From: Zoogloeaceae bacterium
GTDB taxonomy: Bacteria > Pseudomonadota > Gammaproteobacteria > Burkholderiales > Rhodocyclaceae
NCBI GenBank assembly: GCA_024235675.1
Contig: JACKLZ010000001.1
Coordinates: 547,256 to 611,255 of the forward strand
DNA length: 64,000 nucleotides
Reading direction: 5' to 3'
The notes under the pieces are model-generated. The model did no database searches, had not been told where the DNA came from, and saw only the letters and a list, made by a program, of their open reading frames with translations. This document shows, piece after piece, positions 18,053 through 33,475 of the stretch; position 1 is the stretch's first letter; each line of letters begins with the position of its first letter. Position numbers and translations under genes: made by a program.

Positions 18053-18580
18053 TTAGATGGGGTCGCCTGAAGCGGATATGGCAGCTGAGAGAATAGCTGC
18101 CATTTTTGTGTCAAAGGCCACCAGAAGGATTCTCTCCAGCCCGGCTTGCAAAGCCAATGCCGCTTTGCATTCCACGACAGCGATACGCGCGGCCGGCACC
18201 GCAGGAAAACCATAGACGCCGCAACTGATCGCAGGAAACGCGATGCTGCGCAGTTCATGTTGTACCGCCAGCGCCAAGCAATTGCGATAGCACGCCGTCA
18301 ATCGCGCTACTTCATTTTGTTGCCCGCCGTGCCAGACCGGGCCCACGGTATGAATGATCCAGCGAGTCGGCAGCCGGAACCCGGGTGTAATCCGCGCTTC
18401 CCCCGTGGGGCAACCGTTGAGATCGCGGCAACAGGCGAGCAGATCGGGGCCGGCGGCACGATGGATCGCACCATCAACGCCACCGCCACCGAGCAAGGAC
18501 TCGTTGGCGGCATTCACGATGGCATCGACAGACAAGGTAGTGATGTCTCCCTGCCAAACAGACAAACCCGTGTCTTGCAT
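18053..18580 (-). CDS. ymdB: Macrodomain O-acetyl-ADP-ribose deacetylase (YmdB-like)
   Basis: [37 protein letters not shown] and [13 protein letters not shown] motifs; start at MQDTG (18580). Confidence 0.93.
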
Positions 18581-18795
18581 ACCTGTGACTCCAAAACGAG
18601 TGCTACGAGCACATTGTGCGCCAAGGCAGAGGGTGATTGAAGTTCGCTTTGGATCCAGAATTTGCGTGCGCTTGAAGCAGGGAAAGCAAACGGATCGAAT
18701 TTCTGCCGCGATTTGGCGAATGCTTGCTGTCACCAGGTGCGATCGCGATGGTTTACATAATACAAATTATCGCGGTATTAGAAAGGAGCCTTCTC

Positions 18796-18903
18796 TTGAA
18801 CCGACTGCCAAACGTCGCGATTCAAGATGCCGGCCAACCCCTTGTCGCCCTCGGTGTCGTCGAGCGCCTGCAAGCGTCGGCGCATGGACCGTGGGTACGG
18901 TGA
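18796..18903 (+). CDS. Candidate 35-aa small protein (MNRLPNVAIQDAGQPLVALGVVERLQASAHGPWVR)
   Basis: AAAGGAG SD 7 nt before a TTG. The stop ends 1 nt from the stop of the convergent gene. Not present in the ORF track. Confidence 0.35.
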   Translation: MNRLPNVAIQDAGQPLVALGVVERLQASAHGPWVR

Positions 18904-18904
18904 A

Positions 18905-19591
18905 CTATCTGCCAACGTCTTTGACGATGGCCGTGATGATATCGACGTCACGTTCAGCGGCGCTCTTTTGGCGAAGTTCGTCTTGTCGTGGCTTGCTGCG
19001 AGCAATTCTGGTGTGACGAACCGGCTTTGATGAACGTTGCTTGTCGCTACGGCCCGACTTCCGGATCGTGCCTGGTTTGACGGATGCCCCGGAGTTTCGA
19101 GCCGGTGTTTTGGTTACCGCTGCCACCGCCACGGGATACGAGGATGACGAGCGCTCAGCGTCCTGAAGCGCCGGGGCTGGCCCCGTTTGCTCAACTTGCA
19201 ATTGTGGCGTCTCCAGAATGACTGCAGCCGCGCGCTCTACGGCTGGTGCAGCCAACTCAGGCGGCCTGTTGAGCGTTGTGCTGTCCGTTTGCCTGGGTTC
19301 AGCGACGACAGGCATTTGCAAAGCGGTTGACGACGAAGCTGTCGAAATATTTCCGGCCGGATGTGTCCCAGACGAAAAAAAGGTCGAAACGACCGACGCG
19401 ACGACGCCGCCAGTGACGGCCGATAGCGCGAGCATCGGGAGCAGCAGCGCCCGTCGTCGGGTCGATGGCGACGCCCGAGCCGTCGGATCCAGGTCTTTCA
19501 GGATGCTGACGTGCGGCTGCGAAGGCCGCGGGTTGTTGTCACCAACAAGCTGTGGCGCTGCAGCGGAAATGCGTTTCGTATGTTCTGACAT
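18905..19591 (-). CDS. T6SS-associated single-TM low-complexity protein (TagY-like by position)
   Basis: RRR plus a hydrophobic segment, a long Pro/Ala/Ser linker and a C-terminal ERDVDIITAIV motif; divergent from tagX. Confidence 0.5.
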   Translation of the reverse strand: MSEHTKRISAAAPQLVGDNNPRPSQPHVSILKDLDPTARASPSTRRRALLLPMLALSAVTGGVVASVVSTFFSSGTHPAGNISTASSSTALQMPVVAEPRQTDSTTLNRPPELAAPAVERAAAVILETPQLQVEQTGPAPALQDAERSSSSYPVAVAAVTKTPARNSGASVKPGTIRKSGRSDKQRSSKPVRHTRIARSKPRQDELRQKSAAERDVDIITAIVKDVGR

Positions 19592-19714
19592 TACGTTGTC
19601 GTAAAAAATAGGAATGAAAATATCCGGATGTCGTAAGATAGCGCTTTTTTCAACGCCGGAAAATCTTTTGGATGCGACTCGCCCTCTTTTTCTGGACGCC
19701 CCGCGCTTGACTGG

Positions 19715-20575
19715 ATGGCAATACGCGCTGTGATCCTGGTGGGTTTGTTCCTCTATTTTGGTGTCATCTTTGCAGCGGTTGTGCTGCTCATGTTTCCCGA
19801 GCAGCGCGCCGTTGCGGCATCGACCTGTCGAAATTCGGCCGGTGCGCTATGGCAACGGTTTGGTCGGGCTTTCAGGCTCGGTGCATCAGCGCTTGGGACG
19901 ACGCGCGACGGCATGCAAAAGCGGACTCAAAGCCTTTCCTGGTGGGTTGTCGAGCATCGCGCGGTCCTCGTTGCGGCCGCTGCGATGATGGTCGCCCCAA
20001 CGCTGCTTGCATTCTGGCTTCGGGGCCCTGCTGTTTTTGATTTTTCAGATGGGGCCTATGTGCCCGATCGTCAGATCGCCGCCCTGCTCCAGGGAGAGCA
20101 ACTCGTTCCGCCGCCGCCCTTGCCGCCGGAAGTGTTCACCACCCGTGAGGTTGAGCAGATTCGTCCTGACGTGATGGATGCCAGCCGCAACTGGACCCAA
20201 CTGGATGAGGACTTCACCCGTCGTTTGCTATTTGTCATTCAGGCCATGCGCAATCGGTATGGCTACGAGATCGCGCTTCTGGAGGGGTACCGAAGCCCTG
20301 AGCGCCAGACCCAGTTGGCGGCGATGGGGACGCGGGTAACACAGGCTGGCGCTTACATGAGCTACCACCAGTACGGGCTGGCGGCGGACTGTGCTTTTGT
20401 CCGTGACGGAAAGTTGATCATTTCGGAAAGTGACCCGTGGGCGATGCGTGGCTACGAGCTCTACGGCGAACTGGCCGAATCCATCGGCCTGACCTGGGGT
20501 GGTCGTTGGCGCATGCGGGACTTCGGCCATGTTGAATTGCGGCGCGATGGCGTACTGGGCGATCCCGTGTCCTGA
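19715..20575 (+). CDS. tagX: Membrane-anchored M15 peptidoglycan endopeptidase (TagX-like)
   Basis: Two N-terminal hydrophobic segments; M15 motifs GYRSPERQ, SYHQYGLAAD and WGG.W...DFGHVE; first gene of the T6SS block. Confidence 0.85.
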   Translation: MAIRAVILVGLFLYFGVIFAAVVLLMFPEQRAVAASTCRNSAGALWQRFGRAFRLGASALGTTRDGMQKRTQSLSWWVVEHRAVLVAAAAMMVAPTLLAFWLRGPAVFDFSDGAYVPDRQIAALLQGEQLVPPPPLPPEVFTTREVEQIRPDVMDASRNWTQLDEDFTRRLLFVIQAMRNRYGYEIALLEGYRSPERQTQLAAMGTRVTQAGAYMSYHQYGLAADCAFVRDGKLIISESDPWAMRGYELYGELAESIGLTWGGRWRMRDFGHVELRRDGVLGDPVS

Positions 20576-20618
20576 TGTTCATGGCGCTTGAACCAATATT
20601 TATTGATGAGCGGAGATC

Positions 20619-20888
20619 GTGATGACACGCCCTTTCATTCTCCTGGGTGATCAAACCAGCCATGGCGGCACGGTGATCAGTGCGTCCGAAAGCAGCGATT
20701 GCGGTGGACGGGGAATTGCCCGTGTCGGCGACAAGGTGACCTGTCCCAAAAAAGGTCATGGCCGCGTGACGACCATTGCCAGTGGTGATCCCACGGCGCT
20801 GATCGATGGTCGGCCGGCAGCACGTCACGGCGATCTTACCGCCTGCGGTGCGTCGCTTATCGCCAGCCAATCCCTGACCACCGACTGA
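20619..20888 (+). CDS. PAAR-domain spike-tip protein
   Basis: LGDQTSHGG, IARVGDKVTCP...H and PAARHGDLTACGA motifs. Confidence 0.95.
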   Translation: MMTRPFILLGDQTSHGGTVISASESSDCGGRGIARVGDKVTCPKKGHGRVTTIASGDPTALIDGRPAARHGDLTACGASLIASQSLTTD

Positions 20889-20905
20889 GCCGACAATCAT
20901 CACCC

Positions 20906-22303
20906 ATGCTGCTTTCCGCCTTGAAAATTGTCGGTGCAAGTCTTCTCGCTGTTGCCCTCATCTGGGCGCTGGTGCTGGGCTGGTGGCAAGGCAATGACCA
21001 CACGCCGTCCACCACCGAGCTATTTCTCTACTTGGGCGCCCTGCCCTTGGCAATTGTCGGCGGCTACGGGCTGCTGCGCGGCTTTATTGAGCATCTCAAA
21101 GCGCCAGTCGTTGCGTTGGCGCGGGCGCCGGACGACACGCTCGATCCACTGGCCAATGAAGACACACAAACAGCGGCAATGGAGCGTGGCTATACGATCA
21201 ATCTCATCGGCGCGTTCGCCATCTCGAGTGGCGGTGAGGGCCCGTCGGAAATTCTGGCAGCACAGGTGGCCGGAGCGCGGCCATTGCCAGACAGCTCACT
21301 GCTGGATGACGCTGGATTTCCGGTCTTCACCGCACGTGTCGATGCGCTCGACATCGATGGCATTACCGAAAGTCTTGCTCAGTACGACACCGAATTGGCG
21401 CAGGACATAGGCCGTTCTGAACATTTGCGAATGCTCGCGCTGATCGATTCGACGCTTCCCGCGGGGCTTGCTCAAGCGCACGAAGCATTGACGCAGCGCC
21501 CGGCGACATCCCGCTTGAGTGTGGTGTGGCTCATGCCATCCGAGGCCGACCCGGCACTGTTCCCGAAACTGCAGTCGTGGCTTCAAGCGCAGTATCTGAG
21601 TGCCTTCGAGCCTTCGCGGGTGGCGCTGACGGTGCGACCGGCGCTCACTGAGTCTGACGTCATGGCACAGATCGACCGGCTGGTTCTCGACAGCGACAGA
21701 AGGCCAAACGACGACCTCACCCTCGTGCTGGCGGCGGTATCGACGATCGGGCCGCGCACCGTGGATGCCTGGTCGATGCGCCAGAGCCTGTTCTCGGCTG
21801 AGCATCAAAACGGGCAGATTCCTGGCGAGTGTGGCGTATGCCTGCTGTTCGGCAGCACCGACAACACAGACACGTCGGCGCAACTGACTCGCGTCAGCGC
21901 GGCAGAGCGCGACAAGTCCGTCGACGCTGCCGGGCGGGTCAGCGGTGCCTTGATCGAGCAGTTGATCACTGGGCTGCTGACGGTTCACGACATTGCACCC
22001 GCCGACATCCGGGCGGTCATCAGCGATGCAGACCATCGACAAAGTCGCACCAGCGAACTGCTGGACGCGCTCGGTGAGTCATTCTCCGAGCTCGACCCGA
22101 TTGCTGATTGCCCCCGTATTGGCGCTGCGTGCGGCTCGAGCGCCCCCTTCGGCGCCCTGCTCGCCCTTGCCTGCGCGCATGCCAAATCGCTTTCGCTTGA
22201 GCAGCCAGTAATCTGCGTTAGCCAGCAGCACCCCAAGGCACGCGCTGTCGTGCTCCTTCGCCCGACGCCGCTTCCGGCCGAGGGCATGTCCTCCGCCGCT
22301 TGA
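20906..22303 (+). CDS. T6SS-associated membrane protein of unknown function
   Basis: Two N-terminal TM helices and a possible thiolase-like C-terminal lobe (IGAACGSSAP...ALLALAC); located between PAAR and tssM. Confidence 0.6.
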   Translation: MLLSALKIVGASLLAVALIWALVLGWWQGNDHTPSTTELFLYLGALPLAIVGGYGLLRGFIEHLKAPVVALARAPDDTLDPLANEDTQTAAMERGYTINLIGAFAISSGGEGPSEILAAQVAGARPLPDSSLLDDAGFPVFTARVDALDIDGITESLAQYDTELAQDIGRSEHLRMLALIDSTLPAGLAQAHEALTQRPATSRLSVVWLMPSEADPALFPKLQSWLQAQYLSAFEPSRVALTVRPALTESDVMAQIDRLVLDSDRRPNDDLTLVLAAVSTIGPRTVDAWSMRQSLFSAEHQNGQIPGECGVCLLFGSTDNTDTSAQLTRVSAAERDKSVDAAGRVSGALIEQLITGLLTVHDIAPADIRAVISDADHRQSRTSELLDALGESFSELDPIADCPRIGAACGSSAPFGALLALACAHAKSLSLEQPVICVSQQHPKARAVVLLRPTPLPAEGMSSAA

Positions 22304-22320
22304 TTCGATATTCCGTCCCC

Positions 22321-25300
22321 ATGTCACGACTTCGATCCCTCCTCAGCGATTCCCGTCTTCTCGCCTTTATCGGTATTGGCGCGGCCATGGCCTTCTTCTT
22401 TCTGGGCGCAAAGACGCTCAAGGTGGCCTTGTTCTGGGCCGCGATCGCCAGCGGTGCGCTTCTTGCGCTGTGGCTTATCGTCTGGTTTGTTCGCCGACGC
22501 CGCGCGCAACGCTCTGCCGAAGATCTCGGCGCGATGCTCGAACAGCAGGGCGAACACGCCAAAGCGACCTCCAATGACGCCGTCAAATCCGAAATTGCCG
22601 CGCTTCAGGAGCGCATGCACGCAGCGGTCAAAACCATCAAGAGTTCGCGTCTCGGGCAAACCTCCGGCGCCGCGGCCTTGTACGAGCTGCCGTGGTACAT
22701 GACCATCGGAAACCCAGCGGCCGGAAAAAGCACCGCCATCGTCAACTCCGGCTTGAAGTTTCCGTTTGACGACGGCGGCAGCAGCGTGATCAAAGGCATT
22801 GGCGGCACACGTAACTGCGACTGGTTCTTCACGACAGAAGGCATCCTGCTCGACACCGCCGGTCGCTATTCCATTCATGAAGAAGACCGCGCCGAATGGC
22901 TGGGTTTTCTGGGCTTGCTGAAAAAATACCGTCCGCGCGCGCCGATCAACGGCATCATCGTGACCGTCAGCATCGGAGAGTTGCTCGGCAACTCGCCAGG
23001 CTTTGCGATGACCCTGGCCAAAAATCTACGCCAGCGGGTACAGGAGCTGACGGAGCATCTGGCGGTGTTTGCGCCGGTGTATGTGTTGTTCAGCAAGGCC
23101 GACCTGATTCCGGGATTCCACGATTTCTTTCATGACCTCGACTGGAACGAACGAGACCGCGTGTGGGGCGCTACCCTCCCCTACGACCCGGCAGGCAACG
23201 ACGACGCCATTGCGCAATTCGACCAGCGATTTGACGAGCTTTACGAAGGCCTGAGGGCGCTGAGCGTCGCGCAGATGTCGCGCAGCCTGGGGGAAAGCTC
23301 GCCCCCGGGCTTGCTCACTTTCCCGTCTGAATTCGCCAGCATCAAGCCCGCCTTGAAGGCGTTTCTGGCAACGCTTTTTGAAGAAAATCCGTTTCAGTTC
23401 AAGCCAATATTTCGCGGCTTTTACATTACCTCTGCGCTTCAGGACGGTGAAACCCGACCGCTCGCAAATGAGCGGATCACACACAAATTCGGCTTGGTCG
23501 GTGATGGCCCGATGCCGGTTCGTGCAACCTCGAATCATGGGTTTTTTTTAAAGGATCTTTTCTCGAAAGTCGTCTTTGCCGATCGAAACCTGGTGCGCCA
23601 ATACGCCAGCCGAGGCAGGATACGCTGGCGCCAGGCGGCCGTTTTCGGAAGTCTGTGTCTGTTCGGGCTCATGTTGGGAGGGTGGAGCTGGTCTTTCCTG
23701 AACAATCGCGAATTGCTCGCGAATGTCGAGCAAGACCTGCGTCAGGCGGTGCGCATTCAGGATGGGCGACTCGACCTGCAATCGCGCTTTGAAGCCTTGG
23801 CGATTCTTCAGGATCGGCTCGGACAACTCGAACGCTTCAACGACACCCACCCGATTTCACTGGGGCTCGGGCTCTATCGTGGCGAACAACTCGCGGACAA
23901 GCTGCGCACCGAATATTTTGCGGGTGTCAGCAACCTCATGCTCAAGCCGGTTCAGGAGAATCTCGAGGCATTCCTGATCGAGGTAAACAGCCACGCCGGG
24001 TCGACCCCGGCCAAAGACGCTGTCATGCCTGTGGCCACGGGTTCGTATCAAAAAGCCGCGCCGACAGAGGTGGAGGACGCGTACAACGCTCTCAAGACTT
24101 ACCTGATGCTGGCCAGTCACGAGCATATTGAAGTGGGTCATCTGTCCGACCAGATCACCCGCTTCTGGCGCAGTTGGCTCGAAGCGAATCGCGGCACCAT
24201 GACTCGGGAGCAGATGATCCGCGCGGCCGAGCGCATGCTGAGTTTTCATCTCGAACACGCCAACCATCCCGAATGGCCGACGCTCACCAACAATCTGGCA
24301 ATCGTCGATCAGACCCGCGACAAGCTGCGCCGCGTCGTCCGTGGCATGCCCGCCGCAGAGCGAGTGTATGCCGAGCTCAAGGCACGGGCGTCAACACGCT
24401 TCCCGCCCATGACCGTGTCCAATATTGTGGGTGCCGACAACGCGTCGGTGATTTCGGGCAGCTATGTCGTGTCGGGCGCCTTCACCGTAGACGCGTGGCG
24501 CGACTATGTTCAGAACGCCATCAAGGAAGCCGCCACCAGCGAACAGAACAGCGCCGACTGGGTGCTGAAAACCTCCGTCAAGGACGATCTCACGCTCGAA
24601 GGCAGTCCCGAACAGATCCAGAAGTCCTTGATTGCGATGTACAAGCAGGAGTACGCCGAGGAATGGACACGATTCGTCCAGGGGATCAGCGTCAGTGCGT
24701 TTGAGTCCTTTCCTGCCGCGGTCGCCGGCATGAACCGCCTGGGCGACCCGGCCACATCACCGATTGGCACCCTGATTCAGGTGATTTTCGACCAGACGTC
24801 ATGGGACAACCCGTCGATGGCTAATGTGGGCATCGAGCGCGCGCAGAAAGGTTTTGTCGAGTGGTTCAAACGCTCGGTGCTGCGCATGGCGCCCAGCCGG
24901 GTTCAAGTCGACGTAAACATGAGCGCAAAGGCGGTTGAAGTTGCCATGGGGCCAATCGGCAAAGAGTTTGCCGGCTTTGGTCGGTTGATGATTTCGCGGG
25001 ACAACGCCGAGCCGCTTTCGGGCACCTATCTCAAGCAATTGTCCAAAGTCCGCACCCGGTTGAACCAGCTCAAAAATCAAGGAGATCCAGGCCCGGGTGC
25101 CATCAAGTTGCTGCGCGAGACCATCGATGGCGGCGACTCCGAACTGGCCGACACCTTGCGCTTTGTCGATGAACAAATGCTCAACGGCATGCCAGACAAC
25201 CAGCGCGCCGTGTTGCGCCCCCTGCTGTTGCGACCGCTGTTGCAGACCTTCTCCGCGGTAATTCAGCCCGCCGAACATGAATTGAACAAGTCCTGGGGAA

Positions 25301-26085
25301 TTCAGGTCTTCGAGCCCTTCAACCGCAAGCTGGCCATCAAATATCCGTTTTCCGCAAAGGCCAGCATCGAAGCCTCGCCTCAGGAAATTGCGCAAGTCTT
25401 TGGCCCCGAGGGCGCCATTGCCAAGTATGTGGACACCACCATGGGGGCGCTTGTCGTACGCCGGGGCAACACGGTGACGCCGCGCACCTGGGGCGATCTC
25501 GGTATCGCGTTGCAGGGCGACTTCATGAATGGTTTCTCGCGCTGGGTATCGCCGCTCGATGGCGCGGCGGCCAACGGCGAAGACGGCAGCGCACAAGCGC
25601 AAACGGTGTTCATGCTGCGTCCGCTGCCCGTGCCCGGCGCGACGGGCTACGTCATCGAGATCGACGGTCAGAAACTCGACTATCGCAACGGCCCGGCGCA
25701 GTGGGCCAACTTTGTGTGGCCCAACGCCGCCGGCCTTCCCGGCGCACGCATCGTGTCAACGACCTTCGACGGCCGAAGCGTCGAACTGGTCAATTTCCCC
25801 GGTCGCTTCGGTCTGGAAAAAATGATCAATTCAGCCCAGCGTGCAAGACAACCCGACAACACCTTCCGCTTGTCGTGGTCGCGTGATGGGGTCGAAGTGA
25901 GTGTCGATCTGCGGGTCGTCAGCAGCGCCCAGGCGCAAGCTGCACCAAGCAATGGAAATGCCCCGCGACGCGGTCTCGGTGGTGTCGCGCTGCCTGCTGA
26001 AATCGCCGGACTGCGTCGCCCACGAGTCGGCGAGCCGACCTCAACACCCGCCGTGGCAATGACAAATGCGGGAGCCGCGCAATGA
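22321..26085 (+). CDS. tssM: T6SS membrane-complex subunit TssM (IcmF)
   Basis: LYELPWY, Walker A GNPAAGKST, TRNCDWFF, LLDTAGRY, INGII, PVYVLFSKADL and FRGFY motifs; three TM segments; C-terminal F.G.FGL domain. Confidence 0.96.
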   Translation: MSRLRSLLSDSRLLAFIGIGAAMAFFFLGAKTLKVALFWAAIASGALLALWLIVWFVRRRRAQRSAEDLGAMLEQQGEHAKATSNDAVKSEIAALQERMHAAVKTIKSSRLGQTSGAAALYELPWYMTIGNPAAGKSTAIVNSGLKFPFDDGGSSVIKGIGGTRNCDWFFTTEGILLDTAGRYSIHEEDRAEWLGFLGLLKKYRPRAPINGIIVTVSIGELLGNSPGFAMTLAKNLRQRVQELTEHLAVFAPVYVLFSKADLIPGFHDFFHDLDWNERDRVWGATLPYDPAGNDDAIAQFDQRFDELYEGLRALSVAQMSRSLGESSPPGLLTFPSEFASIKPALKAFLATLFEENPFQFKPIFRGFYITSALQDGETRPLANERITHKFGLVGDGPMPVRATSNHGFFLKDLFSKVVFADRNLVRQYASRGRIRWRQAAVFGSLCLFGLMLGGWSWSFLNNRELLANVEQDLRQAVRIQDGRLDLQSRFEALAILQDRLGQLERFNDTHPISLGLGLYRGEQLADKLRTEYFAGVSNLMLKPVQENLEAFLIEVNSHAGSTPAKDAVMPVATGSYQKAAPTEVEDAYNALKTYLMLASHEHIEVGHLSDQITRFWRSWLEANRGTMTREQMIRAAERMLSFHLEHANHPEWPTLTNNLAIVDQTRDKLRRVVRGMPAAERVYAELKARASTRFPPMTVSNIVGADNASVISGSYVVSGAFTVDAWRDYVQNAIKEAATSEQNSADWVLKTSVKDDLTLEGSPEQIQKSLIAMYKQEYAEEWTRFVQGISVSAFESFPAAVAGMNRLGDPATSPIGTLIQVIFDQTSWDNPSMANVGIERAQKGFVEWFKRSVLRMAPSRVQVDVNMSAKAVEVAMGPIGKEFAGFGRLMISRDNAEPLSGTYLKQLSKVRTRLNQLKNQGDPGPGAIKLLRETIDGGDSELADTLRFVDEQMLNGMPDNQRAVLRPLLLRPLLQTFSAVIQPAEHELNKSWGIQVFEPFNRKLAIKYPFSAKASIEASPQEIAQVFGPEGAIAKYVDTTMGALVVRRGNTVTPRTWGDLGIALQGDFMNGFSRWVSPLDGAAANGEDGSAQAQTVFMLRPLPVPGATGYVIEIDGQKLDYRNGPAQWANFVWPNAAGLPGARIVSTTFDGRSVELVNFPGRFGLEKMINSAQRARQPDNTFRLSWSRDGVEVSVDLRVVSSAQAQAAPSNGNAPRRGLGGVALPAEIAGLRRPRVGEPTSTPAVAMTNAGAAQ

Positions 26086-27068
26086 CCAGCACCGCAACCG
26101 TTCCAGCGACATGTTTTGGCAAGCTCCCCAGTCGCGGGGATTTTGTGAAGGGGCCGAATCAACACAGCCTGACCCGCATGCTTGATCAGTGGCTCTCCTC
26201 CGCCATGGAGCTGCTTTCCGAAGACCCGCGCTGGAAAGACGCCTATGACGCGGCGCCAGCGGTCGACTTCGCCTTTGTCGGCGCACGGAGCCGCCTGTCG
26301 ATCATTGGTCACCTGCGCCCCAGCCAGGACGCCTCGGGGCGGCGCTTCCCCTTTCTCACCGTGGCAACCATCGAACGTGACGATGTGTTGATGTTCCGCT
26401 GCGGCCCGGCCGGCTTGTCACGCCCGTTTGGCCAACTCCGATCAGTGGCGCGTGCAGCGTTGTCCGGCACCGAGCTGGCGCAGACGCTCGCCGATCTCGT
26501 TGAGTTGAACTGCGGGGAAGACTTTGCGCTGGCGCTGGCCTCTGACCCTTTGGGTCAGTTCGTACGCAGGACATCCATCGCCGGCTTGGCCGAACTGATC
26601 TCGCCGCAGACCCCGCCCGATGCCATTCGCCGAATCATTCTGGCGATTGGTCTGCTCATGCGGCCCGTGCTTGGCAGTGGTGGTAGCCCCATTGAAAAAG
26701 CGCTCGTGTTGCCCTTGCCCGACGACGAGCAACATCGCAATCTCGCAGCCAGCCTCTGGCTGTATCTCGTGACTGCGTTTCTGCGAAAGACAAACTGCGA
26801 ACTGCAGGTTCTCATCGCACGCGATGCACGCGGCGCACGCCTGGTGATCGGCTTCAACGGGGCATCGTCGCGAACGCTGCTGACCGTGATGTCACCCCAG
26901 AGCGCCCCAGAGCACGCGATTGTTCTTGATGATCCCGAATGGATCGAACAACACGACGCGCTTGTCGATGACTACGGCGTGGCAAAGCTGTCGTCTTATC
27001 TGCACCAGGGCGCTACAACGCTGGAGTCTGCGGTGAATACGTTTCGTGAAGTTTTTCTTGGGGAATGA
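26082..27068 (+). CDS. tagF: T6SS-associated post-translational regulator TagF
   Basis: FGKLPSRGDFV and PSQDASGRRFPF motifs; ATGA-coupled to tssM. Confidence 0.92.
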   Translation: MTSTATVPATCFGKLPSRGDFVKGPNQHSLTRMLDQWLSSAMELLSEDPRWKDAYDAAPAVDFAFVGARSRLSIIGHLRPSQDASGRRFPFLTVATIERDDVLMFRCGPAGLSRPFGQLRSVARAALSGTELAQTLADLVELNCGEDFALALASDPLGQFVRRTSIAGLAELISPQTPPDAIRRIILAIGLLMRPVLGSGGSPIEKALVLPLPDDEQHRNLAASLWLYLVTAFLRKTNCELQVLIARDARGARLVIGFNGASSRTLLTVMSPQSAPEHAIVLDDPEWIEQHDALVDDYGVAKLSSYLHQGATTLESAVNTFREVFLGE

Positions 27069-27850
27069 GCATGCTTTTCCGGTTCAGCATCGCCGTCGCG
27101 CTTGGTCTGTCTGGTGCCTGCGCCATTGCGCAAAACACACCAGCCGCAGCGCAGCCGGTCAAAGAAGTCGTGGCTTCGGGTGTCGTGCCCGATGAGGCCG
27201 CGCGCAGCGCCATCCTCACCCGCCTGCGCGATGTTTACGGCGCGAGCCTGGTCGTCGACCGCCTGGAGGTGGGCGGCGTGGTGCCGCCGCCAAACTGGAC
27301 GGAGTACATGTCCAAACTGCTTGGTCCGAATCTCAAGCAGATTCGCGGCGGCCAACTACAGGTCAATGGAACGCAAATTGCGCTCAAGGGCACGGTTTCC
27401 AATGAAGCCCAGCGGCAGAAGATCGTGAGTGACATGGCGACGGCGCTAAATCCGACCTACACCGTCGACAACGCCTTGGTCGTGGGCGCCAGCGCCCAGT
27501 CGATGCTGGACCAGACGCTATCGAATCGTGTGATTGAATTTGAGGTCAGCTCGGCGACGCTCACGCCGACCGGAATCGCCATCGTCGACGAGATGGAAGC
27601 GGCCATCAAACAACTCGGCACACCCCGCATCCAGATCATCGGCCATACCGACAGCAGTGGCGACCGGATGTCCAATGTGGTGTTGAGCCTGGCGCGCGCC
27701 AACAGCGTACGCGAGTACTTGATCGTCAAAGGCATACCCGAGGCCAGCATGAGTGCTTTGGGCGCAGGCCCGGATCGCCCGGTCGCGTCCAACGATACGC
27801 CGGAAGGACGCACCAAGAACCGGCGCATCGAGTTCCGACTTGCAAACTAG
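27065..27850 (+). CDS. OmpA/MotB-family peptidoglycan-binding protein with an N-terminal BON-like region (TagN-like)
   Basis: Signal peptide; IIGHTDSSG, LSLARA..V..YL and N.T.EGR..NRRIEF motifs. Confidence 0.9.
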   Translation: MSMLFRFSIAVALGLSGACAIAQNTPAAAQPVKEVVASGVVPDEAARSAILTRLRDVYGASLVVDRLEVGGVVPPPNWTEYMSKLLGPNLKQIRGGQLQVNGTQIALKGTVSNEAQRQKIVSDMATALNPTYTVDNALVVGASAQSMLDQTLSNRVIEFEVSSATLTPTGIAIVDEMEAAIKQLGTPRIQIIGHTDSSGDRMSNVVLSLARANSVREYLIVKGIPEASMSALGAGPDRPVASNDTPEGRTKNRRIEFRLAN

Positions 27851-27967
27851 TCTTGGTGCGGCGGCTCTCAAGCAACCTGAGTTGCTCAACACGGCCACGA
27901 CGCCTTATCGGCACATCGCAAGCCGGACGGGAGCGCGCGCCGGTGGCGTCAGGCAACTGAGCGAGGC

Positions 27968-29062
27968 TCAACAGTCGGGCTCGCTCGCCTCGTGCGGCGT
28001 CGGCACAACCCCAAGCAGATCTTCCATCTGTGACAGTGCGGTGTCGTCCTTGACGACGGCGCGCAACCACTCGTGCAGTGACATATTGCCCCAGCGTGCC
28101 GCCTTTTCCGCCAGATAGGCGACGGGGCTGTGGGGTTCGGTACGCTTGAAGAACGCGGCAATGTCATTGAGTTGCCGAATGGCGTCTTCCCGGCTCTGAA
28201 CCGGACCGGCCAGCCGGGCGGCATTCTGAGGCGCCGAGTCTTTTGCAGGCATCACGTTCTCCTGCGCCGGCTGCGTGTCTGTCTTCTGCGTCTTGCCTGG
28301 CCAAACGCCGGCGTCGGACGCATAGCGTCGACATGCCCCGTCGAGGTCTTCAAGCGCATCAAACACCGCGCCAAAGGCTGGCGCCTCATCTGCGAGTGCG
28401 GCATCAATGACCGCTTTGAATGAACCGATGGCGGTTCTTGCACGTTCAACGGTGGCGAGGGTGCTGACAAAATGCTGCGCAGGGGAATCCTTGCGGGCCG
28501 CCTCGAACTGCGGCATGGTCAGGTGTGCCTTGCGGGCCAGATCGTCTGCCATGCCGGGGTTGCGCTCCATGCTCGATGCAGTCGCCCGCGCCGACTCAAG
28601 GTCTTGCAGCGAATAGCGACCTTTGGACGATTGAGTGAGCGGAAATTCACGAATCAGTCGGGCCGAGCGATTGACCAACCAGTCGAGACTGCCAACGCGT
28701 TGCCCGTAGTCGCCGTCTTCAGGCAAGGGGTGTAGCGTTGGCCACCACTGGCCGCACAGCCGGTTCAACAGGATGTAGCCGTCGGCGAGCCCCTCGAGCC
28801 CGCGCGTCTGGCACATTGCCTCGGTCAGCCAGACGGCGACCCGAATATCCTTGGTACGGCCGGCCAGCAGGGTTTCGCAGATCTGAACGACGCGCGGCCA
28901 ATCAGCCTCTTTGACATCGGTGATCCATTCGCCTTGCGCCAAGGACGGATCGTCATGTCGGCGCGCCTCCTGGATCATGTCGAACTCGGCGGAAAACATC
29001 ATGTCCAGCCCGCAGGGTGCGGTCGCACCGGTCAGCGGGCGCATCAAGGCATCGATATCCAT
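27968..29062 (-). CDS. tssA: T6SS protein TssA (ImpA_N plus C-terminal domain)
   Basis: MDIDALMRPL, CG.D, ADWP.V, KDIRVAVWL, WW..LHP and C-terminal SREDAIRQL..IA.FF.RTEPHSP motifs. Confidence 0.93.
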   Translation of the reverse strand: MDIDALMRPLTGATAPCGLDMMFSAEFDMIQEARRHDDPSLAQGEWITDVKEADWPRVVQICETLLAGRTKDIRVAVWLTEAMCQTRGLEGLADGYILLNRLCGQWWPTLHPLPEDGDYGQRVGSLDWLVNRSARLIREFPLTQSSKGRYSLQDLESARATASSMERNPGMADDLARKAHLTMPQFEAARKDSPAQHFVSTLATVERARTAIGSFKAVIDAALADEAPAFGAVFDALEDLDGACRRYASDAGVWPGKTQKTDTQPAQENVMPAKDSAPQNAARLAGPVQSREDAIRQLNDIAAFFKRTEPHSPVAYLAEKAARWGNMSLHEWLRAVVKDDTALSQMEDLLGVVPTPHEASEPDC

Positions 29063-29194
29063 TGGGGACTCTTGTGCAACCAAAGCCGTGGTTATACAAC
29101 ATGCATTCGTCACGCGAAAGCATGACATGGCGATATCTTTGTGTTTTTCCTTGCCAGAACCTTCACACGATACGTTCAGGTCCGAAACGCGATC

Positions 29195-29224
29195 AAAAAA
29201 AGGGCGGCCCGTCGCAGGCCGCCC
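29195..29224 (-). terminator. Rho-independent terminator of oprC
   Basis: GGGCGGCC/GGCCGCCC 8-bp stem followed by T7 on the minus strand, 21 nt after the oprC stop. Confidence 0.82.
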
Positions 29225-29244
29225 GCGGTTTTGAATCACGTGAT

Positions 29245-31257
29245 TCAGTCGAGCGCCAAGCGAAGCTTGAGCCAAAGTGTCCGCCCCGGCTCGTTGATCC
29301 GATCTGTCGTGTCGTAGCCCGAAATGCTCGCCCCGCTGCGCGAGATGTGTTCCGCATAGGTTTTGTCGAACAGGTTGTCGATGCCTGCCGAGATCAGGGT
29401 GCGCTTGTTGGGGGTGTAGCTGGCATTGATCGAGAACACGCTAAAGCCACCCGTTTCGCCGACGTCCTGCCCAACGATATTACCGGTGCCAACGCTTACG
29501 CGGTCCTGACCCGACACCAGCCGCCACAGGGCACCTGCTGACCAGCTGTCGGTTTTGTAGTTGATGCCCAGACGCCCTTCCAGCGGCGGGATCTGCCCGA
29601 GCGCGGTGTCGTCGGTGTCGTTTTCGCCACGAACCCACGCAAGCGTGGCCGTACCGGTCCAGTGGCTGCTGAAGTCATAGCGCAGATCGGCTTCGGCGCC
29701 CCAGGTGGTGGCGTCGACATTGCGGGCGTTACTGGCCCAGGTGCTGACCGCTGGCAGCGTCTCGATCAGGATGTAGTCAGAGTGTTTGGCAAAAAACGCC
29801 GAGACCGACGCCTGCGCCGGACCGGCCTGATGCAGCGCACCGATATCGAGCTGCGTGGTCTTCTCGGGCTTGATGTCGAAAGTGCTGGCGGTGCCGGTCA
29901 TCATCATTGTCGTGGCCTGGGGGTTCTTGTTGCGCTCCCAGTAGTCAGCGGCGCGTTCGCTGTGGCCAAGGCCGGCGTAGAGCGTCTTGCCACCGCCCAG
30001 ATCGTGCTCATAGCGCAGGAAGCCGGCTTTCAGCGTATCGGTTTCCTCGGTACCGGAGGTGGTCTTGCCCGTGCGCTCGTCTTCGGCACGACTGCGGTCA
30101 ATGCGCAAACCACCGATCATGCGGTGGCCGTCGGCAAACGCGTGCTGCAACTCGCCAAACACGCCATAGCTATAGAAACGCATATCGGCCGTGCGGGAAA
30201 GCGACTCGTAGTCTGGAATGCCCGCCATGCTGCTGGCCTTGCGCAGGGTGTGTTCGTTGCGCTGGAGTTCCGCGCCCAGGTCGAGCACGGTGGCGTCGCT
30301 GAGGTTGAGCGTCGCGGCGACGCGGCTTCCCTGGGTCTCGCGGTCTGGATTATTGACGGACTTCATGCCGGTGTTGGCGCGCAGCGAGTAGTTGTCCATC
30401 ACGTGGTCAACATAGTTGCGATAGATCTGCGCCTCGATTTTGGCCAGGAGCGGCGAGATGTTGGATTTTTCGAACTTCAGCCCGATGTTCTCGCGGTCGA
30501 ACTTGACGCCGTCCATGGAGCGATCGCCGTAGCGCGCTTCGCCGTCGCTCTTGGCGAGCGAGAGTTCAAGGCGCGTGTCGCGGTCCGGCGTCCAACCCAG
30601 CGCGAGGTTGGTACTCCAACGCGTGTAGGCCGAGTGCACCTCGTTGCCGGCGCCGTCCTTGTAGTTGTTGGCGTCGGAACGTGTTGCGGCAACATCAGCG
30701 TAAAAACCGGGCGTGCCGGCCTGTCCGGTGAGCACCTGATCATTGCGGTCGGCGCTGCCCATCAGCAGGCTCATGTCGCCTTTGACCCCTGCCGTCTCGA
30801 ACGACGGCGCCTGGCGCTCAAACAGCACCACGCCCGCGCTGTTACCGGGGCCGTATTTGACACTCTGCGGCCCTTTGAGCACGGTGACTTTGTCGTAGGC
30901 TTCAGGAAACACGTACGCCGTCGGCGGGTCCATGCGCATTCCGCAGCCGCCGAGGACCATCTCGCCATCGAGCAGAATGCCCAGCCGCGATGCGGCCATG
31001 CCGCGGAATACCGGGTCACCATCGGTGCCGCCCTTGCGGATCACCGAGAAGCCGGGAATATTCTTCAGCAGATCGGCGCCGTCATGCGCCGGAATCGGCT
31101 GACGCGCGGCCTTGGGGTCAGTCGTGACAACCAGTGCTTCGGCCATGGCGGGCGCGGTCACCACCACGTGATCCATGATTTTGTCGGTGCTCTGCGCGAG
31201 TGCGCCGTGGGCGAGCAACAGGCCGATGGCGGCGGGCAGCATTTTCATTCGTGTCAT
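29245..31257 (-). CDS. oprC: TonB-dependent copper receptor (OprC/NosA type)
   Basis: Signal peptide; plug motif GGCGMRMDPPT (CxxxM) and DHVMDN (HxM), matching the OprC copper site; Met-rich loop; C-terminal NEPGRTLW. Confidence 0.92.
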   Translation of the reverse strand: MTRMKMLPAAIGLLLAHGALAQSTDKIMDHVVVTAPAMAEALVVTTDPKAARQPIPAHDGADLLKNIPGFSVIRKGGTDGDPVFRGMAASRLGILLDGEMVLGGCGMRMDPPTAYVFPEAYDKVTVLKGPQSVKYGPGNSAGVVLFERQAPSFETAGVKGDMSLLMGSADRNDQVLTGQAGTPGFYADVAATRSDANNYKDGAGNEVHSAYTRWSTNLALGWTPDRDTRLELSLAKSDGEARYGDRSMDGVKFDRENIGLKFEKSNISPLLAKIEAQIYRNYVDHVMDNYSLRANTGMKSVNNPDRETQGSRVAATLNLSDATVLDLGAELQRNEHTLRKASSMAGIPDYESLSRTADMRFYSYGVFGELQHAFADGHRMIGGLRIDRSRAEDERTGKTTSGTEETDTLKAGFLRYEHDLGGGKTLYAGLGHSERAADYWERNKNPQATTMMMTGTASTFDIKPEKTTQLDIGALHQAGPAQASVSAFFAKHSDYILIETLPAVSTWASNARNVDATTWGAEADLRYDFSSHWTGTATLAWVRGENDTDDTALGQIPPLEGRLGINYKTDSWSAGALWRLVSGQDRVSVGTGNIVGQDVGETGGFSVFSINASYTPNKRTLISAGIDNLFDKTYAEHISRSGASISGYDTTDRINEPGRTLWLKLRLALD

Positions 31258-31359
31258 TCGGGACTCCCGGAAGCTGTGTGCTGAATTTGGACCGGGCGAA
31301 GCATAAGAAAATGGTGATATGCCACGTTTGACCTACCGCAAGATTCGCCTGCCGAATAC

Positions 31360-31376
31360 TGCGACAGATCGTCGCA
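31360..31376. promoter_or_regulatory. Perfect palindrome TGCGAC-N5-GTCGCA upstream of oprC (RegA/PrrA-type box)
   Basis: TGCGAC-AGATC-GTCGCA about 100 bp upstream of the oprC ATG. The regulator assignment rests on resemblance only. Confidence 0.55.
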
Positions 31377-31413
31377 AGCCTTTATCTACAAGGCGTGTGG
31401 CGAAGCACGAAGT

Positions 31414-31442
31414 AAAAACGGCATGCTCGCGAGCATGCCGTT
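31414..31442 (-). terminator. Terminator of the BON-domain gene
   Basis: Palindrome AACGGCATGCTCG/CGAGCATGCCGTT with a T-run on the minus strand, downstream of the BON stop. Confidence 0.78.
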
Positions 31443-31488
31443 CAAGGGCGATACCGTGCACAGAGTGCACCGTCGGATATGCCGCGTG

Positions 31489-31830
31489 TTAGCTGCCGGT
31501 CGGCGGCGCCAGTTCATTGATGACGCGCTTGACGCCTTCAACCCCTGCGGCGCGCTGAGCCGCCGCATCGCGTTGCGCGGGTGAGCTCACCTGCCCGCTC
31601 AGCAAAATCACGCCGTCGCTCACATCTACCCGAATCTTGGCGTCCTGCAGCGTCGTCGTTTCGGCCAAGGCGGCCTCGACCTTGCCTTTGATTGCCGCGT
31701 CGGCTGCCGACACGCTAAGGACGGGTTTTGCCGTGCTATCCGGCGTACCGGCCGCTTGGCCGGGCTGGACGAGTCCAAAGGACAAGGCGGCGATGGCGAT
31801 GAGACTGGCGGTGGTAAATCCGTGTTTCAT
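31489..31830 (-). CDS. Single-BON-domain periplasmic protein (OsmY-like)
   Basis: AGGAG RBS, signal peptide, and D..I..KV.A.L / IRVDVSDGVILLSG / A..VEGVKRVINEL motifs. Confidence 0.9.
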   Translation of the reverse strand: MKHGFTTASLIAIAALSFGLVQPGQAAGTPDSTAKPVLSVSAADAAIKGKVEAALAETTTLQDAKIRVDVSDGVILLSGQVSSPAQRDAAAQRAAGVEGVKRVINELAPPTGS

Positions 31831-31887
31831 GATGTCACTCCTGTTTGAGACAAGTGATGACGCCGAAAGGGTCGTCACAGCGACTAC

Positions 31888-31903
31888 AGCAGCGATCATG
31901 CCA
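31888..31903 (-). promoter_or_regulatory. Sigma-54 (-24/-12) promoter of the BON gene
   Basis: Minus strand TGGCATGATCGCTGCT has exact GG-N10-GC spacing, 58 bp upstream of the ATG. Confidence 0.72.
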
Positions 31904-32047: not shown

Positions 32048-33475
32048 TTACGCCCGTCCCGGTGCTGCGACATCGTTTGTCTCGTCGGCCAGGCGGAACA
32101 TCGCTGGCGTCAGCGTATGGCGCTGCAAGAGCCGGTAAAACTCGGTGCGATTGCGATCGGCCAGACGGGCCGCATCGGTGACGTTGCCGCCCGTCAGCTT
32201 CAGCACCTGCGTCAGGTATTCACGCTCGAAGCGCTGGCGCGCCTCGGCATAGGTCAGTACCTCGACGGAAGGCGTGCGCAAGGCGCGTTGAACCAGGGTG
32301 GCGGCAATCAGTGGCGTCGTGGTGAGTGCACAGACCTGCTCGACCACGTTGTAAAGCTGGCGCACATTGCCCGGCCAGGCGGCGGCCACCAGCATTTCCA
32401 GCGCCTCAGGGGCAAACCCGTGAATGGTCTTGCCGTACTTCTCCGACAGACTACGGATGAAGTGGCCGGCGAGCAGCGGGATGTCCTCGCGCCGCGCATC
32501 GAGTGAGGGCAGCGTCAGGCGAACGACGTTGAGCCGGTAATACAGGTCTTCGCGAAAGCTGCCCTCGTGCATGGCCGCATCCAGATCGCGATGCGTGGCC
32601 GAAATAATGCGGACATCGACTGGCCGCGCTCGTGTCGCTCCGACCGGACGAACCGCCCGCTCCTGCAACACGCGCAGCAGCTTGACCTGCAGCGGCAGCG
32701 GCATGTCGCCGATTTCATCCAGAAACAGCGTGCCGCCATCGGCGCTGAGGAACAGACCGTCATGCGCGGTGCTGGCCCCCGTGAACGCGCCTTTCACATG
32801 CCCGAACAGCTCCGACTCCAGCAAGGCCTCGGGAATCGCGCCGCAGTTGATCGCCACGAAGGGATGTTCGGCACGCACACTGGCGCGATGGATCGCTCGC
32901 GCCAGCAATTCCTTGCCGCTGCCGCTGGCACCGCGGATGAGCACGCTGGCGTCGCCGGCAGCGACCATGCGCGCCTCCTCGAGCACCTCGTTCATGCACG
33001 CGCTGCGACTGACGATCTCGGCGCGCCAGGCCTGGCTGTTTTCTCCGGCCTTGAGCGCGCGCGGTGCGGAGACATCGAGCGCCCGGCGCACCTTGTCGAG
33101 CAAGACGCGGCTGTCAAAAGGTTTGGTCAGGTAACCGAACACGCCCCGCGCGGTGGCATCGACCGCATCGGGGATGCTGCCGTGGGCGGTGAGCAGGATA
33201 ACGGGCAGACCGGGGTGGGTGCGACGGATTTCATCAAACAAGGCCAGGCCGTCGCGGCCCGGCAAGCGCACATCGCTGAGCACCAGGTCCGGCGAACGCA
33301 CGGCGAGGTGGGCCAACGCTGCCTCGGCGGAGTCCACGGCATCAACCTGGTAGCCGCTGGCGCGCAAACGCATGGACAAGAGGCGCAGCAGATCAGGGTC
33401 GTCGTCGACCAGAAGCAGGCGGGGTGACTCGGGCGCATCGCTGTTTGAGGTCTCTGCGCGCATGGCGAGATTCAT
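32048..33475 (-). CDS. glrR: Sigma-54-dependent response regulator GlrR/QseF
   Basis: REC domain (LLLVDDD, LSDVRLP, LTAHGSI..AV, LTKPF), AAA+ domain with GASGSGKE, ESELFGHVKGAFTGA and FREDLYYRLNV, and C-terminal GNVTDAARLADRNRTEFYRLL typical of GlrR. Confidence 0.93.
   Translation of the reverse strand: MNLAMRAETSNSDAPESPRLLLVDDDPDLLRLLSMRLRASGYQVDAVDSAEAALAHLAVRSPDLVLSDVRLPGRDGLALFDEIRRTHPGLPVILLTAHGSIPDAVDATARGVFGYLTKPFDSRVLLDKVRRALDVSAPRALKAGENSQAWRAEIVSRSACMNEVLEEARMVAAGDASVLIRGASGSGKELLARAIHRASVRAEHPFVAINCGAIPEALLESELFGHVKGAFTGASTAHDGLFLSADGGTLFLDEIGDMPLPLQVKLLRVLQERAVRPVGATRARPVDVRIISATHRDLDAAMHEGSFREDLYYRLNVVRLTLPSLDARREDIPLLAGHFIRSLSEKYGKTIHGFAPEALEMLVAAAWPGNVRQLYNVVEQVCALTTTPLIAATLVQRALRTPSVEVLTYAEARQRFEREYLTQVLKLTGGNVTDAARLADRNRTEFYRLLQRHTLTPAMFRLADETNDVAAPGRA
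32055..32072. promoter_or_regulatory. GlrR-type enhancer site (one mismatch) inside the last codons of glrR
   Basis: CGTC-CCGGTGCTGC-GACA, 67 bp from the site at 31988. Confidence 0.5.

Follow-up and report, generated by a model that had tools for sequence, protein, structure and literature searches.

Here we describe a 64-kb window of the Zoogloeaceae bacterium genome (C1:547256-611255, within an assembly of 3.78 Mb in 6 contigs that is 91% complete) and one arm of a type VI secretion system (T6SS) that is encoded in it. The arm is characterized by six genes in the order tagX, PAAR, a gene for a 465-aa protein, tssM, tagF and a tagN-like BON/OmpA gene on the + strand; to these are added a tssA gene on the - strand, which is convergent with this operon, and at the opposite end a divergent gene coding for a protein with a single transmembrane (TM) segment (Table 1). 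Genes were called from the map of open reading frames (ORFs) together with Pfam and NCBIfam scans of the window proteins; coordinates without a contig prefix are window positions and C1 coordinates are those of the contig. The family scans bear out the gene content and orientations given in an earlier sequence-only reading of this DNA. Its statement that the 64 kb hold no other T6SS core gene is likewise borne out: a whole-genome tblastn search with 13 core proteins as queries found none inside the window.

The TagX protein has hydrophobic segments at its N-terminus and a Peptidase_M15_4 match over residues 212-274 (E=1.6e-11), next to weaker matches to VanY and M15_3. With the window PAAR as query, tblastn found no second copy in the genome. 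TssM combines N-terminal TM helices with four IcmF Pfam domains, found besides the TIGR03348 match, and has an intact Walker A motif (GNPAAGKS). The tssM start is the ATG at 22321 and not the TTG at 22300: the relatives all begin with MSRLRSLL, and the TTG start was rejected on account of a stop codon that the closest relative carries in the extension to this TTG. With this correction the gap between the 465-aa gene and tssM is 17 bp, and the operon-wide coupling by ATGA overlaps that had been claimed for the arm holds at tssM/tagF and tagF/tagN only and fails elsewhere. For tssA the longest ORF, to 29275, runs into oprC; both the family match and an alignment to relatives place its start at 29062, in agreement with the end coordinate given in the sequence-only reading. 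The convergent tagN and tssA genes are 117 bp apart. The arm has the same G+C content (0.58-0.62) as the DNA around it, and it is flanked by housekeeping genes: those for a macro-domain protein, a Cys/Met pyridoxal phosphate enzyme, oxidoreductases and an ABC-F protein.

Table 1. The T6SS arm, tssA and the bordering oprC gene in the 64-kb window (window positions)
Feature	Position	Strand	Basis
TagY-like gene, 228 aa, single TM segment (about residues 49-72)	18905-19591	-	without Pfam or NCBIfam match
tagY-like/tagX divergent intergenic region, 123 bp, rather AT-rich	19592-19714	.	presumed to contain the tagX-tagN promoter
tagX, 286 aa, membrane-anchored L,D-endopeptidase-type peptidoglycan hydrolase	19715-20575	+	Peptidase_M15_4
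PAAR spike-tip protein, 89 aa	20619-20888	+	PF05488, 95.8 bits
TagZ/AsaB/TsmK-like gene, 465 aa	20906-22303	+	no family match; fold model
tssM, 1254 aa, inner-membrane core of the membrane complex	22321-26085	+	TIGR03348, 690 bits vs cut-off 388
tagF, post-translational T6SS repressor or checkpoint	26082-27068	+	TIGR03373, 119.7 bits; PF09867
tagN-like peptidoglycan-binding protein, BON + OmpA-like domain	27065-27850	+	PF00691, 72.5 bits; BON
tssA, 364 aa	27968-29062	-	TIGR03363, 373 bits vs cut-off 161, full length
candidate tssA promoter/operator, conserved block GTCATGCTTTCGCGTGACGAATGCATGTTGTATAACCACGGCTTTG	29081-29126	-	near-invariance among relatives
oprC intrinsic terminator, 10-bp GC-rich stem then T-run	29195-29224	-	hairpin + T-run
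oprC, TonB-dependent copper receptor	29245-31257	-	760 bits

The remaining 11 core genes lie together on the same contig at C1:407-437 kb, a core locus which is separated from the arm by about 129 kb edge to edge (155 kb from tssC to tssM); tssM and tssA are the sole core genes that are not part of it. On its - strand are tssJ, tssK, tssL, vgrG, a gene for a 503-aa protein of unknown family and TaeI-like immunity genes in an array. Divergent from these, on the + strand, are a lipoprotein/TPR gene, tssB, tssC, hcp, tssE, tssF, tssG, clpV, a second vgrG and genes downstream of it. All core genes have NCBIfam matches above the curated cut-off, namely TssB, C, D (Hcp), E, F, G, H (ClpV), I (VgrG), J, K and L, so that with the two window genes all 13 components TssA-TssM are encoded in the genome (equivalog or subfamily models, above cut-off). 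By tblastn against the whole genome the copy number is one for each core gene save vgrG, which has several copies: the single TssC is at C1:414.7-416.1 kb and the single TssM is the copy in the window. TssJ is present (TIGR03352, 91 bits; PF12790, 88 bits). TssL is of the short form that has no peptidoglycan-binding domain, which fits an anchoring role for TagN; the position after tssL is occupied by vgrG.

Directly upstream of tssB is a + strand lipoprotein gene (C1:413432-414070) with the lipobox LGVQA|C and weak TPR matches, whose orthologue is present in the relative G007; it occupies the TagM/TslA position and is probably TagM-like. This gene (L003:13433-14071) overlaps the longest tssJ ORF, so that the real tssJ start must be later; in that ORF the beginning of the TssJ domain is at about residue 104-152. 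Downstream of vgrG and the 503-aa gene, at C1:400124-406093 (L003:125-6094, - strand), at least three, probably five, paralogues with overlapping ORFs are arrayed in tandem, and these match the TaeI family of T6SS immunity proteins at their C-termini. This array looks like an expansion of immunity genes, and the 503-aa protein is probably an effector. A small ORF between clpV and vgrG (L005:6840-7322, +) has a weak match to the Tae4 amidase effectors (E=0.0017), and the stretch after the second vgrG (L005:10180-14378, +) has a weak match to the adaptor family DUF4123 and a 1031-aa effector of the BTH_I2691 family. Beyond this locus there are at least four further full-length VgrG loci (C2:841-844 kb, C3:8-11 kb, C3:211-214 kb and C5:226-229 kb) and VgrG fragments 78-87% identical to the second VgrG of the core locus (C1:431-437 kb), a dispersed spike and effector arsenal that is large for a 3.8-Mb genome.

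The 465-aa gene follows PAAR at a distance of 17 bp, here as well as in all relatives. Its product belongs to a family of 836 representative clusters at 50% identity (profile from 32 homologues) that no Pfam or NCBIfam model matches; the homologues are always annotated as hypothetical or transmembrane proteins, and ten distant members are either called only 'hypothetical protein' or nameless. An AlphaFold (AF2) model made from the alignment of homologues (predicted local distance difference test score, pLDDT, 88; predicted template modelling score, pTM, 0.78) displays two N-terminal TM helices (residues 2-29 and 36-65) and a domain of the thiolase/ketosynthase type. The best PDB matches of this model in Foldseek are the Pseudomonas aeruginosa T6SS adaptor Tla3 (8yz3) and ketosynthase/chain-length-factor and FabF structures, with E about 1e-11 to 1e-9; the probability is 1.0 for these and for polyketide synthase ketosynthase domains. 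There is no cysteine in residues 1-308 and no invariant cysteine among the 32 homologues, and H377 is nearly invariant. TagZ, also called AsaB, has N-terminal TM domains, and its gene is in T6SS-1-type clusters always the one immediately after paar (PMC6612558); it has been renamed TsmK and described as a pseudo-ketoacyl synthase with a stabilising effect on TssL-TssM (PMC10564176, PMC13584744). The 465-aa protein is thus predicted, from its fold model and its place after PAAR, to be a TagZ/AsaB/TsmK-like membrane pseudo-ketosynthase without a nucleophilic cysteine.

The divergent 228-aa protein is typified by a short cytoplasmic N-terminus with a conserved SILKDLDP motif and an RRR stretch, the TM helix (about residues 49-72), a low-complexity linker that varies and, conserved at the C-terminus, a ERDVDIITAIVKD motif, and it has no cysteines at all. 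The SILKDLDP and ERDVDIITAIVKD motifs are common to its orthologues, which are divergent from tagX in the loci L007-L013 and in G007. The published description of TagY (PMC6612558) is matched in position, orientation, the TM domain following RRR and the linker, but not in the Cys-rich C-terminal domain. Judged by position and topology, the gene fits a TagY-like assignment.

The best matches of the window TssA are from Zoogloeaceae bacterium G21618-S1 (91%) and from Denitromonas halophila and D. ohlonensis (85%), and by its TssA loci the organism is a Denitromonas-like member of the Rhodocyclales. The synteny comparison that the sequence-only reading had proposed, when run, finds the layout of the window, with oprC, tssA, the convergent tagN-tagF-tssM-465-aa-PAAR-tagX and the divergent single-TM gene, again in six named relatives with TssA identities as low as 62%: G21618-S1, D. 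halophila, D. ohlonensis, D. iodatirespirans, a Nitrogeniibacter metagenome-assembled genome (MAG), where the locus breaks off inside tssM, and a Rhodocyclaceae MAG. TssM and TssC are both present in nine of 12 other species of the genus, where they are never on one contig or, in a complete genome, are 819 kb apart. In a survey of 61 genera of the family the two proteins were found in the same 15 genomes, and at the level of genera no case was seen of an arm kept without a tail. Hence, the split is old and maintained.

In the relative G007 the system is contiguous: clpV...tssB is divergent from tssJ-K-L-tssA, which in turn is convergent with tagN...tagX. The identities of its orthologues to the proteins described here are 73% for TssM, 86% for TssC, 51% for TssA and 40% for TagZ. 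In an Aromatoleum MAG (L013) tssA is convergent with tagN...tagX, and the divergent tagY-like gene is convergent with tssL. In G014 tssA-tagX...tagN-vgrG are on one strand, apart from the core, and the two parts are split by 424 kb in G056 and by 255 kb in G009. There are thus at least three layouts: that of G007, that of L013, and that of the window, G056 and G014. On this comparison, the arm and tssA behave as a movable block in Rhodocyclaceae. In the present genome the counterparts of the genes that lie downstream of tagX in G007 are at C1:467-481 kb, inside the segment between the two loci, which fits a chromosomal rearrangement and not the insertion of an island. As tssA follows tssL in the contiguous G007, it is tssL from which tssA was parted in the lineage of the window, and not clpV; the expectation that tssA normally comes after clpV is wrong for this lineage. 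The tssM of G056 (C1:4051271-4055026 of a complete genome, 62% identity) has one in-frame TGA, which may mean a pseudogene, a sequencing error or recoding.

Selection on the arm was gauged by the ratio of nonsynonymous to synonymous substitution rates (dN/dS), computed pairwise by the Nei-Gojobori method against four or five relatives. The lowest values are those of PAAR (about 0.03) and tssM (0.044-0.09), followed by tagF (0.08-0.15), tagN (0.11-0.16), tagX (0.12-0.17), tssA (0.13-0.17) and the 465-aa gene (0.16-0.26). The TagY-like single-TM gene is the fastest-evolving of the arm (0.27-0.47); the neighbouring oprC, taken for comparison, has 0.04-0.10. The arm is strongly constrained and not decaying, and the argument from intact ORFs to selection, as made from the letters of the window, holds. 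An orphan or degenerate remnant is not what these data describe: the core genes are in the genome, and the dN/dS of tssM is 0.044-0.09.

Upstream of tssA the oprC terminator, with a stem at 29224-29202 and a T-run, is followed by about 130 bp to the tssA ATG, as had been described earlier. The hairpin and T-run are kept in most relatives, and the terminator would isolate tssA from oprC transcription. Of the 182 bp between oprC and tssA, the sole conserved part after the terminator is a block of about 45 bp, GTCATGCTTTCGCGTGACGAATGCATGTTGTATAACCACGGCTTTG, 19-64 bp upstream of the tssA ATG. All relatives with this layout have it, almost without change in L007-L011, and it is found also in L012, where another gene separates oprC and tssA. 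This block is a candidate for tssA's own promoter/operator, with TATAAC as a possible -10 element. Considered as an operator shared among T6SS operons, the block was rejected: its 21-nt core occurs once in the genome, and a search that allowed up to 5 mismatches gave only the site itself at fewer than 4 mismatches and no match near the other T6SS operons. For the tagX-tagN operon a promoter is placed in 19592-19714 solely because of the divergent gene starts. Two further genes a short way upstream of oprC are those for a BON-domain protein (31489-31899, -) and for a sigma-54-dependent response regulator with receiver, Sigma54_activat and HTH_8 domains (32048-33475, -); they are 2.5-4.5 kb from tssA, and any link to the T6SS is hypothetical.

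Taken together, the arm is very probably the membrane-complex and accessory part of one complete system of the Burkholderia T6SS-1 type, the genes of which are at two sites of one chromosome. What carries this view are the identities of the genes, the single-copy complementarity of the two loci, the conservation of the layout and the purifying selection on it. We infer that the two loci would be co-expressed and would assemble one working machine. In such a machine the arm would supply the TssM pillar, the TagX peptidoglycan cutter, the TagN peptidoglycan anchor and a TagZ/TsmK-like stabiliser of the membrane complex, together with the TagF checkpoint, the PAAR spike tip and the TssA assembly cap; the core locus would supply TssJ/K/L, the TagM-like lipoprotein, TssB/C, Hcp, TssE/F/G, ClpV, the VgrGs and the effector/immunity cargo. 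An old rearrangement would have parted tssA and the arm from tssJ-K-L; tssA would now stand behind the terminated oprC with a conserved upstream element of its own, and tagX-tagN would be transcribed from the divergent tagY/tagX region. A cluster split by rearrangement, with a tssA in need of its own promoter, was one of two scenarios put forward in the sequence-only reading, and it is supported by the 11 core genes at C1:407-437 kb and by the conserved block of about 45 bp.

Several observations weigh against this interpretation. The congener G063, a 100%-complete assembly of 10 contigs, has a TssC with 94% identity and no TssM match to TIGR03348 at all; hence, the two halves can be lost separately. 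No OprC orthologue was found in G063 at E<=1e-50, and the arm and oprC may both have been lost there and the tail genes kept. With 91% completeness of the present assembly a further T6SS gene could be on the missing sequence, though none is needed. On the regulatory side, a scan of 18500-31500 for the sigma-70 consensus returned zero sites, fewer than in shuffled sequences and none in the tagY/tagX region, and sigma-54-like strings upstream of tssB (TGGCAC...TTGC), tagX and tssA were rejected by eye on account of their wrong GG-to-GC spacing.

The other scenario of the sequence-only reading was that the contractile core had been lost and a TssM/TagX/OmpA envelope module persists alone, perhaps with a new function. 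This would account for a window without genes for tube, sheath, baseplate, spike (besides the PAAR tip) or ClpV. It is refuted by the complete core found in the whole-genome search, the very outcome that had been named beforehand as refuting it: the missing genes are intact, single-copy (vgrG apart) and 129-155 kb off on the same contig, and TssM and TssC show perfect co-occurrence across the 61 genera. We give this scenario practically no credence, so that of the earlier interpretation the split cluster stands and the tail-less module falls. It is also conceivable that two unrelated partial T6SSs, for example from separate horizontal acquisitions, lie side by side and do not work together, seeing that the loci are physically separate in different chromosomal contexts and that horizontal transfer of T6SS clusters is frequent. 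We consider this very unlikely: the two loci complement each other exactly, nothing being missing and nothing duplicated save the vgrG genes that are multi-copy anyway; moreover, the same orthologues form one contiguous cluster in G007, the arm has the G+C content of its surroundings, and its accessory genes, taken together, make up the known T6SS-1 set. Lastly, the genes may be intact in a split system that is heading to loss, its machine no longer assembled or used. Piecemeal loss is easier for separated operons, and both G063, with its tssC and no TssM match, and the in-frame TGA in the tssM of G056 are of the kind expected from it. We nevertheless regard it as improbable: purifying selection is strong on every arm gene and comparable to that on oprC, the TssM Walker A is intact, the split layout is kept down to about 62-66% TssA/TssM identity, and many VgrG and effector/immunity islands are present in the genome.

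By analogy with the published clusters, the accessory set of the arm together with the gene at the TagM position fits that of a Burkholderia T6SS-1-type system, as known from B. cenocepacia (BCAL0337-BCAL0353) and from relatives in Ralstonia, Rubrivivax, Achromobacter and Xanthomonas (Spiewak et al. 2019, PMC6612558). In both, tagY, or here the TagY-like gene, is divergent from tagX, and tagX...tssM-tagF-tagN is convergent on tssA; in the window TagX is beside tssM in one operon, with TagF and TagN downstream and translationally coupled to tssM. A lipoprotein gene in the TagM position directly upstream of tssB, the presence of TssJ and a short TssL with a TagN anchor are further shared features, and the paar-tagZ pair inside the cluster is shared with the non-Burkholderia members. 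The system described here differs from Burkholderia T6SS-1 in that the arm and tssA are about 129-155 kb of ordinary chromosome away from the rest (819 kb in a congener), in that tssA follows tssL in the contiguous G007 and not tssH/clpV as in Burkholderia, and in the TagY-like protein, which is without the Cys-rich C-terminal domain; the same has been reported of the homologue in Ralstonia solanacearum (PMC6612558). The published accessory set comprises tagF, tagM, tagN, tagX, tagY and paar-tagZ, and translocations of gene blocks have been noted in some T6SS-1-type clusters (PMC6612558): a split T6SS-1-type cluster is a variation already described in kind.

The Acinetobacter locus (PMC5061870, PMC10564176) likewise possesses tagX, tagF, tagN, PAAR and a membrane-anchored pseudo-ketosynthase adjoining PAAR; there the proteins are named TsmK/AsaB, PAAR/AsaC and TslA/AsaA. 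By its description, TsmK has the ketosynthase fold without a nucleophile that is predicted for the 465-aa protein. Acinetobacter is without TssJ, for which TsmK has been proposed to compensate (PMC10564176). In contrast, the TsmK-like gene coexists with TssJ in the present genome; the Acinetobacter locus is, moreover, contiguous.

T6SSs encoded at several loci are known: Vibrio cholerae has a main cluster and auxiliary hcp/vgrG clusters, and Burkholderia has vgrG/PAAR islands. The dispersed genes of such systems are usually expendable ones for tube, spike and effectors. The system reported here resembles them in that one machine is encoded at several sites, with VgrG islands on C2, C3 and C5, but differs in that the essential single-copy genes tssM and tssA are displaced.

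A 64-kb window cannot by itself prove that a system is incomplete, as the missing genes may be elsewhere on the contig, which is the case here. That a TsmK-like protein and TssJ occur together is of relevance to the published proposal in which TsmK makes up for a lack of TssJ. We suggest tentatively, and with rather less than even confidence, that the 465-aa family are true TagZ/TsmK homologues which routinely coexist with TssJ, and that the split of arm and tail may permit the separate regulation or loss of the membrane complex and the tail. If the family are TsmK homologues, TsmK would be a widespread independent factor of the T6SS-1-type membrane complex and not an Acinetobacter-specific substitute for TssJ; the family is in any event a candidate for a new TagZ/TsmK family model. 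More generally, tssM and tssA, and not just hcp/vgrG cargo, can be 150-800 kb from the rest of a system in the long term and under strong constraint, and tagX-PAAR-tagZ-tssM-tagF-tagN moves together with tssA as a unit in Rhodocyclaceae.

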